63,044 bases of DNA, filler included, from GCA_964501035.1; 22 parts of 22 records of this genome joined end to end with filler, not necessarily neighbours in it, one strand, 5' to 3'; positions 19,402 to 51,024 are shown, numbered from the whole stretch's first letter. The notes: generated by a model from the sequence alone, not told the origin. Translations and numbers: made by a program.

Positions 19402-19503
19402 NNNNNNNNNNNNNNNNNNNNNNNNNNNNNNNNNNNNNNNNNNNNTTAATTAATTAANNNNNNNNNNNNNNNNNNNNNNNNNNNNNNNNNNNNNNNNNNN
19501 NCC

Positions 19504-22326
19504 TTCATCCCTTTCCTCACATCAATCCTATTTGCACAGATGACAGTTTCCGGTACGGTAACAGATGCATCTTCTGGCGATGCTCTTGCTGGTGCAAACG
19601 TTGTTGTGGATGGCACAGATCTGGGTGTAGCATCAGATGCTAATGGTGCATATACGTTAAGCAATGTTCCCAATGGTGCAACCATTACAGCATCTATGAT
19701 TGGTTTTAGTAGCGAATCTAAAGATGCATCAGCAACTCTTAATTTTCGTCTTGTAACATCTGCAGTACAATTATCCGCTCTAGACGTTGTTGCTACAAGG
19801 GCTACCTACAGAAAAACACCCGTAGCTTTCACCGAATTGGATGAACAAGACCTAAAACTAAGAATTGGATCTAGAGATATCACTATGGTTCTGAATGAAA
19901 CACCTGGCGTATACGCACACGAAGAAGGTGGTGGAGCAGGTGATTCAAAAATTTATGTACGTGGATTCGATCAAACAAATACAGCAATTTTGATAAATGG
20001 TGTACCAGTTAATGATATGGAAAGTGGAAAAGTTTATTGGTCAAACTGGGATGGCATGTCGGATGTAACATCTTCTATTCAAGTTCAACGCGGATTAGGT
20101 GCAAGTAGCCTAGCAGTTGCTTCCGTTGGTGGTACAGTAAATGTCAGGACAAGTGCAGCAGAATTAAAAAGTGGCGCTTCTTATAAACAAGAGTTGGGTT
20201 CTGACAATTTTATGAAAAGTACATTCAATTTTAATACCGGGCTATCGCCAAATGGATTTGCCTTAACTGGTTTGCTTCAAAGAAAAACTGGTAGTGGACA
20301 AGCTTATGGTACATGGACTGATGCTTATGCATATTTCCTCACAATGTCCAAATCGTATAAGAATAGCGTGGTTGATGCATATGTTGTTGGTGCGCCTCAG
20401 CAACATGGGCAAAGATATGACGATAATGCATTAACATTTGCTCAGTGGAAAGAGACTCACGGAAAAGATCATAAAACTAATTCTGGCTATAATGGATCCT
20501 ATGATGGTTCTGGCAGTGGTTGGGGTTATGTCTCTAAAGAAAATGCCCAGTCAATAAAAAAAGGAAATAGTTCATTAGATGCAGTTGGTTCTGCTCTTTT
20601 TGGTGATGTATTACATACAAGGCAAGAAATCGGTAGTGATAAATGGATAATCAATAATCGTACAAACTATTATCATAAGCCTGTTTACGGTTTAAACTGG
20701 AGATATAAAATTGATGATCGTACCAGTATTAATACGGTAATGTATTACTCAACTGGTCGAGGTGGAGGAACTGGTCCATTGAATTCAGGAGGAACTGGTT
20801 TATATGCTGATGATTCCACTGATGCAGATGGCAATACAGTTAATTATTATGCTGAGACGAGTGTAAAATACATTAATCCAGATCCTGATTCCGATGTGCC
20901 AGGACAATATAACTGGGATGGTCTCATTGATTATAATTCATTTGATAATACAACTGCTCACGGCAATATATGGTTGGGAAGTGATACTCTATCATCAAAA
21001 TATTCTACACTTCAATGGAACTATGGAAGGCCTTATGATACCACATATAGTGATGATGAAAAAAGAGCTAAAAGTATTATCAGAGCATCTGTTAATCATC
21101 ATGATTGGTACGGAGGTATCTCAACGGTAAAACATAAATATAGTGATAATTTAATCGCGACCCTCAGTTTGGACCTTCGCAAATATAAAGGAACACATTT
21201 TAGGCAGGTTGTAAATCTACTGGGTGGTGATTATTTTGTTGATAAATATAAAAATGTCAATGATGTCACATCATCAAGTCAAATGAAAAGAGTAGGTGAT
21301 CAAATTGCTTACCATAATTTAGGTCATGTTGCTTGGGTCGGTTATTCCGGACAATTAGAGTATTCATCAGGACCCTTATCAGTGGTAACAAGCCTTGCAA
21401 AATCTTCTACTATGTATCAAAGAGAGGACCGACATAACTACACCCCAAGTCAGTATATGTCAGAACGAATTTCATTCCCTGGTTATGCATATAAAGTTGG
21501 TGCAAATTATAATTTGGGTGATGCAATAAATGTATTTGCAAACTTCGGAAGATTACAGACTGCCCCAAAATTCACCAGCGTATATCTTAACTATAAGAAT
21601 GATGTTAATCCAAAAGCAAAACCAGAAAAGGTCCAGACACTTGAACTTGGGGCGGGATATAATTCAGGAAGCTTACGCGCTAATGCAAATTATTATATGA
21701 CAAATTGGTCGGATAAATCATTAGTGAAAACTGGAGCCAATGATGCTATATATAATATTGATGGAATCGAAGCAAACCATTCTGGTCTTGAATTGGATGT
21801 GGATATGGGAGTTATGGATTGGCTTAACCTTAATGCTGCACTATCTTTAGGGAATTGGACTTGGGGTAAAGATCTTGATAATGTAGTTGTTTTTGATGAT
21901 AACAATCGAGGTGGAGCCCAAGATACCATAAGCATCTATACAGATGGATTACACGTCGGCGGCGCACCGCAAACACAATTTAGTTTAGGTATATCTGCTG
22001 CCCCAATGGAAGGCTTAATCGTTCATCCTGTAATAAATTATTTTGCAAATTTCTATTCGGATTTTGATCCTGCAGATAGAGGTGATGAATCTATGAAAGG
22101 AGTTGATTCTTATATGAATGATGCAGCAATGACCATAGATCTTCATACCACATATAGTTTTACACTTATAGGGTATAATATGACTCTAGGTTTGCATGCA
22201 TTTAATCTGACTGATACTGAGTATGTAAATTTTGCTATTGATGGTGGCGATGGAACAAAAGAAAGTGCTAGAGTCTTCTATGGACTGGGGCAGAGATTTA
22301 ATCTCTCACTGGGGGTTAATTTTTAG
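19504..22326 (+). CDS. TonB-dependent receptor (signal peptide cut at the contig edge)
   Basis: CarboxypepD_reg-like N-terminus; plug IYVRGFDQ..INGVPVNDMESGKVYWSNW; C-terminal GVNF. Confidence 0.93.
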   Translation, partial: FIPFLTSILFAQMTVSGTVTDASSGDALAGANVVVDGTDLGVASDANGAYTLSNVPNGATITASMIGFSSESKDASATLNFRLVTSAVQLSALDVVATRATYRKTPVAFTELDEQDLKLRIGSRDITMVLNETPGVYAHEEGGGAGDSKIYVRGFDQTNTAILINGVPVNDMESGKVYWSNWDGMSDVTSSIQVQRGLGASSLAVASVGGTVNVRTSAAELKSGASYKQELGSDNFMKSTFNFNTGLSPNGFALTGLLQRKTGSGQAYGTWTDAYAYFLTMSKSYKNSVVDAYVVGAPQQHGQRYDDNALTFAQWKETHGKDHKTNSGYNGSYDGSGSGWGYVSKENAQSIKKGNSSLDAVGSALFGDVLHTRQEIGSDKWIINNRTNYYHKPVYGLNWRYKIDDRTSINTVMYYSTGRGGGTGPLNSGGTGLYADDSTDADGNTVNYYAETSVKYINPDPDSDVPGQYNWDGLIDYNSFDNTTAHGNIWLGSDTLSSKYSTLQWNYGRPYDTTYSDDEKRAKSIIRASVNHHDWYGGISTVKHKYSDNLIATLSLDLRKYKGTHFRQVVNLLGGDYFVDKYKNVNDVTSSSQMKRVGDQIAYHNLGHVAWVGYSGQLEYSSGPLSVVTSLAKSSTMYQREDRHNYTPSQYMSERISFPGYAYKVGANYNLGDAINVFANFGRLQTAPKFTSVYLNYKNDVNPKAKPEKVQTLELGAGYNSGSLRANANYYMTNWSDKSLVKTGANDAIYNIDGIEANHSGLELDVDMGVMDWLNLNAALSLGNWTWGKDLDNVVVFDDNNRGGAQDTISIYTDGLHVGGAPQTQFSLGISAAPMEGLIVHPVINYFANFYSDFDPADRGDESMKGVDSYMNDAAMTIDLHTTYSFTLIGYNMTLGLHAFNLTDTEYVNFAIDGGDGTKESARVFYGLGQRFNLSLGVNF

Positions 22327-22350
22327 GATACCAATAAAAGTAAGTAATGT

Positions 22351-22382
22351 AAAAAAGCCTCGACGAAATCGGGGCTTTTTTT
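22351..22382. terminator. Bidirectional Rho-independent terminator
   Basis: AAAAAAGCCTCGA-CGAAA-TCGGGGCTTTTTT. Confidence 0.8.
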
Positions 22383-22560
22383 ATAGTTAAAATATATCAG
22401 GGAAATTGATATCAAATAGTGATGGCAATTTATCTTCAAAATTTAGGCCAAAGACCANNNNNNNNNNNNNNNNNNNNNNNNNNNNNNNNNNNNNNNNNNN
22501 NTTAATTAATTAANNNNNNNNNNNNNNNNNNNNNNNNNNNNNNNNNNNNNNNNNNNNGAC

Positions 22561-48239: not shown

Positions 48240-48356
48240 NNNNNNNNNNNNNNNNNNNNNNNNNNNNNNNNNNNNNNNNNNNNTTAATTAATTAANNNNN
48301 NNNNNNNNNNNNNNNNNNNNNNNNNNNNNNNNNNNNNNNAGTGAACAAAAAAAATA

Positions 48357-48827
48357 ATGCAATTTAAATTAAAAGATTTATTACTTTCAGAAGCTACTCT
48401 TCCAGAAAAAATTGTTATAGTACTAACTGTTGTTGTACTTGTTTTTGTTTTCACACCTAGAGAAAAACAAGTGGTTGACGATACACCTATTATTGGTCAA
48501 GAATTTGAAGAGTATCCATTATTAGCATGGAAGTCTACACATAAAAAATGGAATGGTATACATGGTGATATTGTAAAGATTAGATATAGAGTTACACATG
48601 ATAAGACATTTATACAAGTTATTGATATAAATACAGGTAAGGTAGTTCATAAACAACCTTATGAAAGAGGTCCGTGGGAAGATGGTCGATCAAGAGACTT
48701 TACATATGTTTGGATGTTATACGCTACAGAAGATTATAGTGATGATATTCCATATGGAGATTATCAAATACAAGTATGCCATAAGTATTCAGGTAATGTT
48801 GATATGACATTAGATATAACTATATAA
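48357..48827 (+). CDS. Membrane-anchored small Ig/FlgD-like protein, homologue of 39275-39724
   Basis: TM, then YPLLAW..GDIVKIRY..TGKVVHKQPY..DGRSR..YVWMLY..PYGDY. Confidence 0.7.
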   Translation: MQFKLKDLLLSEATLPEKIVIVLTVVVLVFVFTPREKQVVDDTPIIGQEFEEYPLLAWKSTHKKWNGIHGDIVKIRYRVTHDKTFIQVIDINTGKVVHKQPYERGPWEDGRSRDFTYVWMLYATEDYSDDIPYGDYQIQVCHKYSGNVDMTLDITI

Positions 48828-48836
48828 GGAGTTAAA

Positions 48837-48938
48837 ATGAAGAAACAAAAGAAAAGTCGTAAAATAAAAAGAACACCAGAAAAACTACATGAATTATACA
48901 TGATGCAGAAACGGTGTATGGAAAGGAGTAAAAAATGA
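48837..48938 (+). CDS. Small basic hypothetical protein (33 aa)
   Basis: AAGGAG RBS; ATGA overlap with the next ORF. Confidence 0.45.
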   Translation: MKKQKKSRKIKRTPEKLHELYMMQKRCMERSKK

Positions 48939-49120
48939 CAAAACAAGAATGGTTAAATGAAAAGGTGTTTAGAGATTTATATGGTAGACTATATAATTTA
49001 TCGGATGTTCCAATGACAATGATGACACGAAAAGAATCATTTAAAAAACAAGGTGGAACTAAAAAAGAAATAAATGAGTATTGGAAAAAAAATAAACATT
49101 TATATCAAGTGGAAAAATGA
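48935..49120 (+). CDS. Small phage-like hypothetical protein
   Basis: AAGGAG RBS; ATGA overlaps at both ends. Confidence 0.65.
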   Translation: MTKQEWLNEKVFRDLYGRLYNLSDVPMTMMTRKESFKKQGGTKKEINEYWKKNKHLYQVEK

Positions 49121-50328
49121 AAACTTATCTTACATACGATGATGTAAATATTGTTCCGAAATATTCGGAATTAGAATCTCGTGATAACGTAAAACTTAAT
49201 ACACGATTTACAAAGAATACAGAATTAACTATTCCAATAGTTGCTTCACCAATGGACACCGTGACTGAATTTGATATGGCACATGAAATGTTAGATTGGG
49301 GTGGAGTTGGTGTCATACATAGATTTCAAAGTATTGAAAACCAAGCTCGGATGATGAAGTCATTACATTATGAATGGGATAAATATTTTGATATTGGTAA
49401 AACCTATGGCGATGATGATAGTGAAAGAACAATTGAAAAAGAATATGATGAGTGGTGGGATAGTTTTGACGCAAGACATTGGAATCATCCACCTACTAAA
49501 TCAGATTGGGAAGATTTAAAAGATAGATTTTATTGGGCGGATTCTTTGATTTGTGATGAAAAGATTTGGAAGAAAAGACCATTATGTGCAGCAGTAGGAG
49601 TTACTGATGATTACAAAGAACGTGCACGAGAATTGGTTGAAAATGGATGTAATGTATTACTTATAGATGTAGCACATGGCCATCATATATTAGTAAAAAA
49701 AGCTATAGAGGAATTTAAAAATGAATTTGGAACAAATGTTGAAATCATCGGGGGTTCAATTGCAACCAAAAAGGCGACACATGATTTATGTGAATGGGGT
49801 GTTGATGGACTCCGAGTTGGTATCGGAAATGGATCTTTATGCGAAACAAGAATCAGAACGGGGGTTGGACTTCCTCAGATTACTGCTCTTCTTGATGTGT
49901 GTTCCATTGCTGACGGGTATAATGTTCCTGTCATTGCTGATGGTGGGATTCGTAATGTTGGGGATGTGTGTAAAGGACTTGGTTGTGGGGCTGATACCGT
50001 CATGGTTGGGTCGTTATTATCAGGGACGAAAGAAAGTCCAGGTACAATAGAAAAAGTAGGTGAATGGCCAAATGAAAAATTATTTAAAAAGTATAGGGGG
50101 TCTGCTTCAAGGGACTCTAAAGGTAATGATAAAAATGTTGAAGGAAATCATAAAATTATACCGTACAAAGGTAAGATTAAAAGAATCCTACACGACATCA
50201 GAGATGGAGTTCATAGTTCTTTCAGCTATGTTGGTGCTAACAATATGTCTGAATATCATTCTAAGGTAGAATTTGTAGAGGTTACAAAGGCTGGCCAGAT
50301 TGAAGCTAAACCACATTTATTAAATTAA
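49117..50328 (+). CDS. IMP dehydrogenase/GMP reductase family protein without CBS domains
   Basis: LTYDDV, ASPMDTV, IDVAHGH, GIGNGSLCETR, IADGGIR, MVGSLLSGTKESPG, YRGSAS. Confidence 0.9.
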   Translation: MKTYLTYDDVNIVPKYSELESRDNVKLNTRFTKNTELTIPIVASPMDTVTEFDMAHEMLDWGGVGVIHRFQSIENQARMMKSLHYEWDKYFDIGKTYGDDDSERTIEKEYDEWWDSFDARHWNHPPTKSDWEDLKDRFYWADSLICDEKIWKKRPLCAAVGVTDDYKERARELVENGCNVLLIDVAHGHHILVKKAIEEFKNEFGTNVEIIGGSIATKKATHDLCEWGVDGLRVGIGNGSLCETRIRTGVGLPQITALLDVCSIADGYNVPVIADGGIRNVGDVCKGLGCGADTVMVGSLLSGTKESPGTIEKVGEWPNEKLFKKYRGSASRDSKGNDKNVEGNHKIIPYKGKIKRILHDIRDGVHSSFSYVGANNMSEYHSKVEFVEVTKAGQIEAKPHLLN

Positions 50329-50339
50329 GAGGAATTGAA

Positions 50340-50480
50340 ATGTCTTTTTTAGAAGAAATATTACATAAACTAGATGAAGCTATAGAATCTAAAGATTGGG
50401 ATTTAGTACAAGATGTTATAGATGAAATTAGAGAACATCTAGATAATCCATTTGATGAATATAATACAGAGGATTGGTAA
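50340..50480 (+). CDS. Small acidic hypothetical protein (46 aa)
   Basis: GAGGA RBS; MSFLEEILHKLDEAIESKDW...TEDW*; ends 7 nt before the tmRNA. Confidence 0.6.
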   Translation: MSFLEEILHKLDEAIESKDWDLVQDVIDEIREHLDNPFDEYNTEDW

Positions 50481-50487
50481 AAGATAT

Positions 50488-50907
50488 GGGGCTGATATTG
50501 GAAATCGACAGGTGTTATTTGACAATAGAGTGCAGCAGAGATTGAGTAGGTCTCGTTACAAAATACTCACTAACTCAATTGGCGATAATTCGCTAGACGG
50601 GTTGGTAATTGATTGGCACCTAGCCAATACAGAACGGATGTTTGACAATTTCGTTGAACCCGTTGTGGATTACCAACCAACATACGCTTACGCGTAAGTT
50701 ACTGAGTTGTCTAACACTCGGTCATAAAATAAGTTAGACAATCTTCTTCTACAAGTGTGAAGTAAAACGGACTTGTCAGTTAAGCCTTTCTGAGTAAAGA
50801 GGTTATGGTGGGTTTGTTGGTGGACTACCGATTTGGAAACCAAACTAAGCTGTAACGACTCATTGGAAAAAACAGACTGGACCGGGGTTCGATTCCCCGC
50901 AGCTCCA
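50488..50907 (+). ncRNA. ssrA: tmRNA (transfer-messenger RNA)
   Basis: 5' GGGGCTGATATTGGAAATCGAC; 3' T-arm CGGGG-TTCGATT-CCCCG; acceptor GGGGCTG/CAGCTCC with G3-U and discriminator A; PK1; tag frame 50581-50697. Confidence 0.95.
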
Positions 50908-51024
50908 CAAAAAAATGTATTTTNNNNNNNNNNNNNNNNNNNNNNNNNNNNNNNNNNNNNNNNNNNNTTAATTAATTAANNNNNNNNNNNNNNNNNNNNN
51001 NNNNNNNNNNNNNNNNNNNNNNNT

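Follow-up and report, generated by a model that had tools for sequence, protein, structure and literature searches.

Known tmRNAs and the present locus

Tags encoded by transfer-messenger RNAs (tmRNAs) are textbook short degradation signals, canonically of about ten residues (ANDENYALAA in Escherichia coli), and the tmRNAs of phages are commonly regarded as spares for the host molecule. Mycoplasma is known for a tag of unusual length with a hydrophobic or aromatic C-terminal end. The element considered here lies on the plus strand at positions 50488..50910 of a 63-kb stretch (63,044 nucleotides, hereafter the window) of the metagenome-assembled genome (MAG) GCA_964501035.1. It is a complete one-piece tmRNA gene with a tRNA-Ala-like domain and pseudoknots 1 and 2 (PK1 and PK2), and it very probably represents a marine phage tmRNA from which a long tag, predicted at 38 residues, is translated.

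Phage tmRNAs as such were known. Of 18,146 phage genomes, 402 were reported to carry one, with two-piece forms in the OM43 myophage Melnitz and in pelagimyophages (PMC9004378). Further examples come from Bacillus phage G and mycobacteriophages of cluster C (Bxz1 and others; PMC4131195) and from huge phages, whose tmRNAs were located with ARAGORN (PMC7162821). No tag of the length or sequence seen here is described in the accessible portions of these three papers, and a full-text literature search (main articles) turned up no publication that deals with long tags of phage tmRNAs. The novelty lies in the conserved tag, about 38 residues long, that this phage tmRNA carries.

Like the canonical one-piece tmRNA (RF00023), the present one displays a tRNA-like domain with a G3.U pair, a resume codon about 11 nt downstream of PK1, an A at position -4 of that codon, a stop codon in helix 5, PK2 and a tag end rich in alanine and tyrosine. 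Unlike it, the phage gene belongs to a group with tags of 34-49 residues that carry an extra N-terminal block, with longer RNAs (400-445 nt among 56 distinct full-length relatives, see below), no encoded CCA and no smpB gene on the phage. Melnitz is likewise a marine T4-like myophage with a tmRNA; the molecule of the window is in one piece and in standard order, not permuted, and the permuted model RF04321 gave no reported match in the window (Infernal against Rfam). A precedent for length going with a change of protease is offered by Mycoplasma pneumoniae, whose long tag is read mainly by Lon according to the accessible part of the source (PMC8403727). The two tags are alike in being unusually long and in a hydrophobic or aromatic ending; no relationship in sequence was seen. 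That of Mycoplasma is chromosomal and occurs in hosts devoid of ClpXP.

Structure of the tmRNA gene

RF00023 was the sole Rfam family matched in the window, with 81.9 bits (gathering score 47), an E-value of 3.1e-30 and coverage of the entire model (1-374 of 374; Infernal). ARAGORN called no gene anywhere in the window. Eighty related loci were fetched, all of which matched the RNA profile; 67 were full length and represented 55 distinct sequences, or 56 together with the window. Unless indicated otherwise, counts given below refer to these 56 sequences.

RNAalifold proposed 53 base pairs, 26 of them with compensatory changes. The named structure had 81.4 % of its cells paired, against 35-52 % when partners were slid along the alignment. 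Changes on both sides of a pair amounted to 218 cells distributed over 24 pairs, slid partners yielding only 12-28 cells, and none of 500 shuffles reached the covariation observed.

The 5' strand of the acceptor stem, GGGGCTG (50488..50494, plus strand like all features of the gene), pairs with CAGCTCC at 50900-50906 and includes the G3.U pair characteristic of alanine identity. Pairs G1-C, G2-C and G3.U were constant in 56/56 sequences, and pairs 5-7 covaried (CG 46, GC 5, AU 2). Acceptor stem and T-arm were covarying and 98-100 % paired; in the T-arm (50883..50899) all five pairs were changed on both sides with pairing at 100 %, and helix 2, like this arm, covaried heavily. The discriminator A at 50907 precedes CAA, so that the gene does not encode CCA; this A is probably where the mature RNA ends, to receive its CCA later.

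PK1 (50538..50569) is composed of GAGAT (50538-42) with GTCTC (50550-54) and TGAGTA (50543-48) with TACTCA (50564-69). Both stems could form in every relative, including compensated variants of the second (TGGGT/ACCCA in two sequences, TAGGT/ACCTA in one). The A at 50577, four positions before the resume codon, occupies an invariant alignment column (A90) and is the counterpart of A86 of E. coli, a nearly universal residue that sets the tag frame (PMC2481249, as far as the accessible text goes). Over the resume codon lies a small 4-bp hairpin, GCGA-UAAU-UCGC (50582..50593), which showed 98-99 % pairing and included a single compensated pair (GC 54, AU 2). Helix 5 (50681..50698) carries the stop codon on its 3' strand, and its pair 221/249 alternated between AU (36), UA (10) and UG (6).

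The most conserved stretch was PK2 (50702..50739), which also served as search motif. Its stem a covaried (CG 48/UA 8; AU 48/GC 8), and the invariance of stem b is uninformative because this stem was part of the search pattern. The region in which PK3 and PK4 would be expected (50740..50845) was variable, with many insertions and deletions and no preference for a frame. A scan for promoters and terminators around the gene returned nothing beyond shuffle level.

The tag reading frame

The tag frame begins 11 nt after PK1 with the resume codon GGC and comprises 38 codons closed by the stop codon TAA (50581..50697), reading GDNSLDGLVIDWHLANTERMFDNFVEPVVDYQPTYAYA*. Trypsin is predicted to release GDNSLDGLVIDWHLANTER from the N-terminal and MFDNFVEPVVDYQPTYAYA from the C-terminal part of the tag. 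One frame was open from the resume position to the helix 5 stop in 56/56 relatives, with 35-49 codons. The family pattern opens with [GS]D.SL.GL.[IV]DWHLA and closes with QP[ST]YAYA(A), on either side of a variable middle; the three parts are called here, in order, N block, middle and C block. The first 15 codons or so encode the best conserved part of the peptide, and residues S4, L5, G7, L8, D11, W12 and A15 were invariant in 20 diverse tags.

Variation within the frame was distributed as in a coding sequence. Summed column entropies were 22.6, 16.0 and 33.1 at codon positions one, two and three, and synonymous third-position changes occurred across the N block at Leu, His, Ala and Asp codons. 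The pooled ratio of non-synonymous to synonymous substitution rates (dN/dS, Nei-Gojobori, 55 tags) was 0.42, with 0.37 in the N block, 0.55 in the middle and 0.34 in the C block. Identical columns read in the +1 and +2 frames gave 1.11 and 1.36, and the N block alone 0.93-1.35 when shifted. The distance between the Asp-Trp codons and the PK2 anchor fell into seven classes from 86 to 110 nt, all equal to 2 modulo 3 in 56/56 sequences. The control stretch from PK2 to the T-loop displayed 23 distances, split 24/18/14 modulo 3. The whole frame of 35-49 codons is thus under selection as a peptide.

The beginning of the frame is marked by the A at -4, present in all 55 sequences with an assigned resume codon (GGC 46, AGC 7, GAC 2) and, by eye, also in the 56th (L086), whose codon was left unassigned by the pattern. 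The frame cannot start earlier, since loci L111 and L075 have an in-frame stop two codons upstream of the GD/GE tag start. When all loci were pooled, some contigs having been fetched twice, a tag was obtained from 157 of 163; the six others include loci cut at a contig end. This set held 81 distinct tags of 34-49 residues (mode 38), 58 of which ended in YAYA or AYAA; rarer ends were YANA, HVYA and VYAS. In L054, represented by two contigs, the stop TAA is changed to CAA and the frame extends through PK2 to 49 residues.

A first-pass annotation made from the sequence alone had placed an unannotated tmRNA at 50488 and described its acceptor stem, G3-U pair, discriminator A, missing CCA and PK1 stems; each of these is present in the sequence at the positions given above. 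The 38-codon frame that it drew 11 nt after PK1, with A at -4, translates as proposed. Confirmation of the gene by ARAGORN or Infernal, which it suggested, came from Infernal and failed with ARAGORN. Its proposal to look for conservation at synonymous sites was answered by the contrast of dN/dS between the true and the shifted frames. It had also foreseen the contrary outcome, in which homologues would keep only the last ten codons or so with insertions and deletions upstream; the low ratio in the N block and the exclusive occurrence of whole-codon length changes point the other way.

Phage origin and distribution

The window is a composite of 22 short contigs (2,262-3,213 bp, ordered by size) joined by linkers of the form N44-TTAATTAATTAA-N44. 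These contigs are unrelated, so adjacency across linkers carries no meaning. The tmRNA gene lies on contig C120 (2,584 bp; 48340..50923), flanked by such linkers, together with a gene of the IMPDH/GMP-reductase superfamily, and both have relatives on viral contigs of IMG/VR. The IMPDH-like gene had 15 viral relatives there with 69-82 % identity. In 11 of these 15 loci a tmRNA of 406-426 nt follows downstream, and in two more (L008/L064 and L010/L058) a tmRNA is found a little further along the same contig. Related tmRNAs scored 72.8-102.6 bits against RF00023.

The exact 34-nt PK2 pattern was found on at least 81 viral contigs of IMG/VR, of up to 164,845 bp, and the tag-peptide profile on 135. 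The longest of the former, G001 (164,845 bp, GC content 34 %, rated 79 % complete), carries the tmRNA on the record and has 124 of its 125 open reading frames (ORFs) of at least 90 aa on one strand. As indicated by comparison of 92 ORFs of at least 150 aa with PHROGs, it displays a T4-like core that comprises both structural genes (portal, prohead protease, major head protein, baseplate wedge and hub, tail tube) and genes for UvsX, a gp43-type polymerase, clamp, clamp loader, SSB, helicase, primase and ribonucleotide reductase. Genes for peptide deformylase and Hsp20 are located near its tmRNA. Three DNA modification genes of the Mom-like type are likewise present on G001, as are three giant structural proteins (1,738-2,047 aa) encoded in tandem.

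A second record, G006 (216,422 bp), was rated 100 % complete and carries the tmRNA directly after the IMPDH-like gene. The surrounding region (158000-174000) encodes a PurF-like amidotransferase, a 6-phosphogluconolactonase-like protein, two sulfotransferases, an AAA_5/MoxR-like ATPase and a staphylococcal-nuclease homologue. Also near the tmRNA is an ATP-grasp protein of the tubulin-tyrosine-ligase family, a family that adds residues to protein C-termini.

The capsid protein was 49 % identical to that of Flavobacterium phage immuto, 51 % to that of Microcystis phage Mel-JY01, 35 % to that of RM378 and 53 % to that of an uncultured 484-kb phage (LR756508.1). No tmRNA above cut-off was found in immuto, Mel-JY01 or RM378, and blastn of C120 against 50,697 phage records gave no match. 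When 185,579 species were scanned, each represented by a single genome, the RNA motif came up in one place and the tag in three, always on short MAG contigs (0.7-7.6 kb); of the tag matches, one was partial and lacked a tmRNA. Contig L125 of an archaeal MAG, which matched tag residues 2-14 and has no tmRNA, was taken as a chance match. Searching with the 3' portion of the tRNA-like domain brought up unrelated tmRNAs only. Fourteen DNA runs from seawater, marine, plankton and hydrothermal vent metagenomes contained 0.33-0.80 of the sampled words. Judged from these relatives, the tmRNA gene is assigned to an uncultured T4-like marine phage with a genome of about 180-216 kb.

The MAG holding the window (1.87 Mb in 167 contigs) was rated 95.7 % complete with 1.33 % contamination. 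It possesses a second tmRNA on contig C62 (2427-2785), of 359 nt and 174.8 bits, located beside tRNA-Lys and specifying the nine-residue tag ADYGYAAAA according to ARAGORN. Of the 125 ORFs of at least 90 aa from a related phage, 118 were compared with the MAG by tblastn, the seven spanning a 20-kb piece boundary being dropped. Few other small contigs matched, at 81 % (C161, ribonucleotide reductase), 67 % (C156) and 44 % (C109), so that C120 appears as one of a handful of phage fragments included in the bin. The MAG RecA was considered as a guide to the host taxon and set aside as not decisive: its top match was a Marinimicrobia single-cell genome at 74 %, many phyla lie near 70 %, which makes the placement loose, and the link between MAG and phage is itself unproven.

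The first-pass annotation had spoken of a phage-like contig and had deduced a large phage from neighbouring small ORFs and the IMPDH/GMPR gene. The phage nature of the fragment and the size class of its source stand, the related T4-like records measuring 165-216 kb. The ground has changed, however: the contig is just 2,584 bp long, one of 22 joined together, and its origin is deduced from relatives and not from adjoining ORFs of the window. The same annotation had considered that the long tag might prove to be that of the host clade's ordinary chromosomal ssrA. Against this, a tmRNA with a nine-residue tag exists separately in the MAG, and the species scan produced short contigs only.

Transcripts related to the locus were encountered in metatranscriptomes. 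Six runs contained 0.13-0.17 of the sampled words. Assembled contigs of four runs from four studies, aligned at a likeness of at least 80 %, covered 50495-50914 in all four runs and left 50145-50494 without cover, which is not evidence that this portion is silent; summed contig depth reached about 1,800 in one run. This distribution is a hint of an abundant, discrete RNA.

Proposed role of the long tag

In the mechanism favoured here, the host alanyl-tRNA synthetase would charge the tmRNA through G3.U after a host enzyme has added CCA, and host SmpB and EF-Tu would deliver it to ribosomes stalled on broken mRNAs. SmpB is assumed to come from the host because no SmpB was detected on any of ten phage records, complete G006 included. 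Translation would resume at GGC 50581, adding alanine and the 38 tag residues to the stalled protein. The C-terminal QP[ST]YAYA(A) would serve a host AAA+ protease as a signal of the ordinary ssrA type, and SL.GL.[IV]DWHLA of the N block may provide a second recognition site, for an adaptor or a Lon-type protease. The phage would thereby free ribosomes after host mRNA breakdown and steer truncated proteins to degradation. T4-like phages are known to degrade host mRNA. Such breakdown should strand ribosomes, so extra rescue capacity beside peptide deformylase would make sense as a translation-support module. By analogy with the long tag of Mycoplasma, a two-part degradation signal of this kind would explain the tag length, with its extra 25-30 residues; we hold this explanation tentatively and at somewhat less than an even chance.

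Three unrelated long frames are at hand from phages, which raises the question of a general trait. Besides the family of the window, a tRNA-rich viral contig (L021, 2614-3029) has a 417-nt tmRNA with a predicted 29-residue tag (ARAGORN) of another sequence. The 484-kb phage has one of 447 nt (LR756508.1:92434-92880) with a putative 36-codon frame ending in PAAV, again of another sequence, for which ARAGORN gave an eight-residue tag in a different frame. The segment NSVEDLEALW of the L021 tag loosely resembles NSLDGLVIDW of the window family.

A broader reading would make the N block a phage-specific handle by which phage-rescued proteins meet another fate than host-rescued ones, with long lineage-specific tags being general in phage tmRNAs. 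This is a speculative extension, which we regard as rather doubtful. If true, the handle could deliver host fragments to a given host protease or adaptor for quick recycling or, in reverse, jam proteases, and each long lineage-specific phage tag would constitute a private tagging code. A marine phage group that is widespread, occurring in seawater metagenomes from numerous studies, retains a tag roughly four times as long as usual, with a conserved N block that has no known reader. Whether phages, in the course of infection, alter what becomes of rescued proteins is thereby made a testable question.

Alternative explanations

Several points weigh against a long tag translated and read as proposed. 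The overall dN/dS of 0.42 is moderate and not extreme. Three N-block codons (Ser TCG, Gly GGG and Trp) never vary. A helix between GGUUGG of the N block and CCAACC of the Gln-Pro codons is 96.7 % pairable, and no significant covariation supports it, 132 of 500 shuffles being equally high. Because the invariant codons overlap the resume-codon hairpin and this possible helix, part of the conservation may act at the RNA level; such a constraint would add to the conservation, but the codon-position pattern and the whole-codon length changes are not explained by it. For E. coli it was proposed that base pairing near the resume codon blocks function (PMC2481249, accessible part). On relatives, ARAGORN called shorter tags, of 11 residues (VNDEPTYAYAA) in L113 (9378-9797) and of 20 in L122 (1292-1740). 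The sharp edges of the metatranscriptome cover carry little weight, since only assembled contigs were aligned and the neighbouring genes of relatives are perhaps too diverged to align. The tag peptide itself is predicted from nucleic acid sequences. Searches for Lon, ClpP and AAA proteins, extending to the complete record, found no phage-encoded partner for the N block.

The alternative that survives best accepts translation of the long tag and denies that it is a degradation signal: the tag might block or saturate host proteases, park protein fragments or mark them for use by the phage. Its length and N block, which have no counterpart in the host-type ADYGYAAAA, fit this view, as do the 22 of 56 tags ending in YA instead of AA, the ends YANA, HVYA and VYAS among the 81 pooled tags, and the long frames of L021 and LR756508.1. 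Against it stands the similarity of QP[ST]YAYA(A), the best conserved motif of the C-terminal part, to the usual ends of ssrA tags. This motif presumably also resembles the Lon-read Mycoplasma tag, which we count on the same side. In addition, no reader was found in the complete record: Lon_C was absent from five of five phage records, and ClpP-family genes were present on two of five large records (L299, G003:79453-79947; L300, G002:85869-86330), one of them with an in-frame TAA, and not on G006. Matches to AAA_2 in four of five records had been candidates for a Clp-type reader and were rejected, the G006 copy, the only one compared with Pfam, being AAA_5/MoxR-like instead. AlphaFold2, run on the tag with 20 relatives, gave no confident fold (predicted local distance difference test score 62, predicted template modelling score 0.21) and a single short helix at residues 12-19; a fold of such low confidence offers no basis for the mini-domain considered in the first-pass annotation. 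We judge a purpose other than degradation to be unlikely.

A short tag is far less probable. Translation would then resume late, on the last 11-20 codons or so, and upstream conservation would reflect RNA structure or a protein-binding site. The ARAGORN calls of 11 and 20 residues, the hairpin at the proposed resume codon, the possible 6-bp GGUUGG/CCAACC helix that brackets the variable middle and the three N-block codons without third-position variation are what such a view would draw upon. It does not account for third positions being the most variable across the N block, with synonymous changes, for the N-block dN/dS of 0.37 against 0.93-1.35 in shifted frames, or for all seven length classes between Asp-Trp and PK2 remaining in frame. 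The invariant A at -4 and the end of PK1 11 nt upstream likewise designate the early codon, and ARAGORN disagreed with itself among close relatives, calling no gene (L216, as in the window), 11 residues or 20.

Still less credible is a decaying or decoy tmRNA that soaks up host SmpB and leaves its frame unused. Such a role would suit a phage without SmpB of its own, and phage DS6A, which has the tRNA-like domain only, provides a model, such a molecule having been reported to inhibit tmRNA (PMC4131195, accessible part). A decoy would need neither the full architecture kept here with covariation nor a frame under purifying selection with whole-codon insertions and deletions.

A second bacterial ssrA of the MAG or another host clade, or an island-borne copy, can practically be dismissed: the MAG is rated nearly complete with little contamination, tmRNA genes frequently serve as integration sites and only 13 nt of the contig follow the gene, but the MAG already has its canonical tmRNA, only few other small MAG contigs resemble phage, the relatives reside in long T4-like records including a complete 216-kb genome, and species genomes hold motif or tag only on contigs of 0.7-7.6 kb.

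Annotation and neighbouring genes

Genes with such tags pose an annotation problem, since ARAGORN misses them or shortens their tags and gene callers deposit the tag frames as small proteins. When the tag profile was run against 1.84 billion proteins, 33 matches were obtained at E <= 0.001, of which 30 were miscalled ORFs of 33-81 aa over tmRNA genes. The three long proteins were discarded as weak repeat matches (FG-GAP repeat protein, E 1.3e-6), and no natural protein family in this search shared the tag.

Two further reading frames precede the tmRNA on C120. The IMPDH/GMP-reductase superfamily gene (49117..50328, plus strand) encodes 403 aa and matched PF00478 (E 7.9e-102) and phrog_9582; it scored under every NCBIfam equivalog cut-off. 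Between it and the tmRNA lies a putative acidic ORF of 46 codons (50340..50480, plus strand), taken from the ORF list, which displayed a weak sub-threshold Pfam match and was not a conserved neighbour at G006 or L019.

One other contig, presumably of the window, resembled the phage. C109, placed tentatively at 19502-22457 by its length of 2,956 bp, has a protein product that shares 33-44 % identity with a 912-aa ORF of G001 whose function is unknown, and is probably a second phage fragment within the window.

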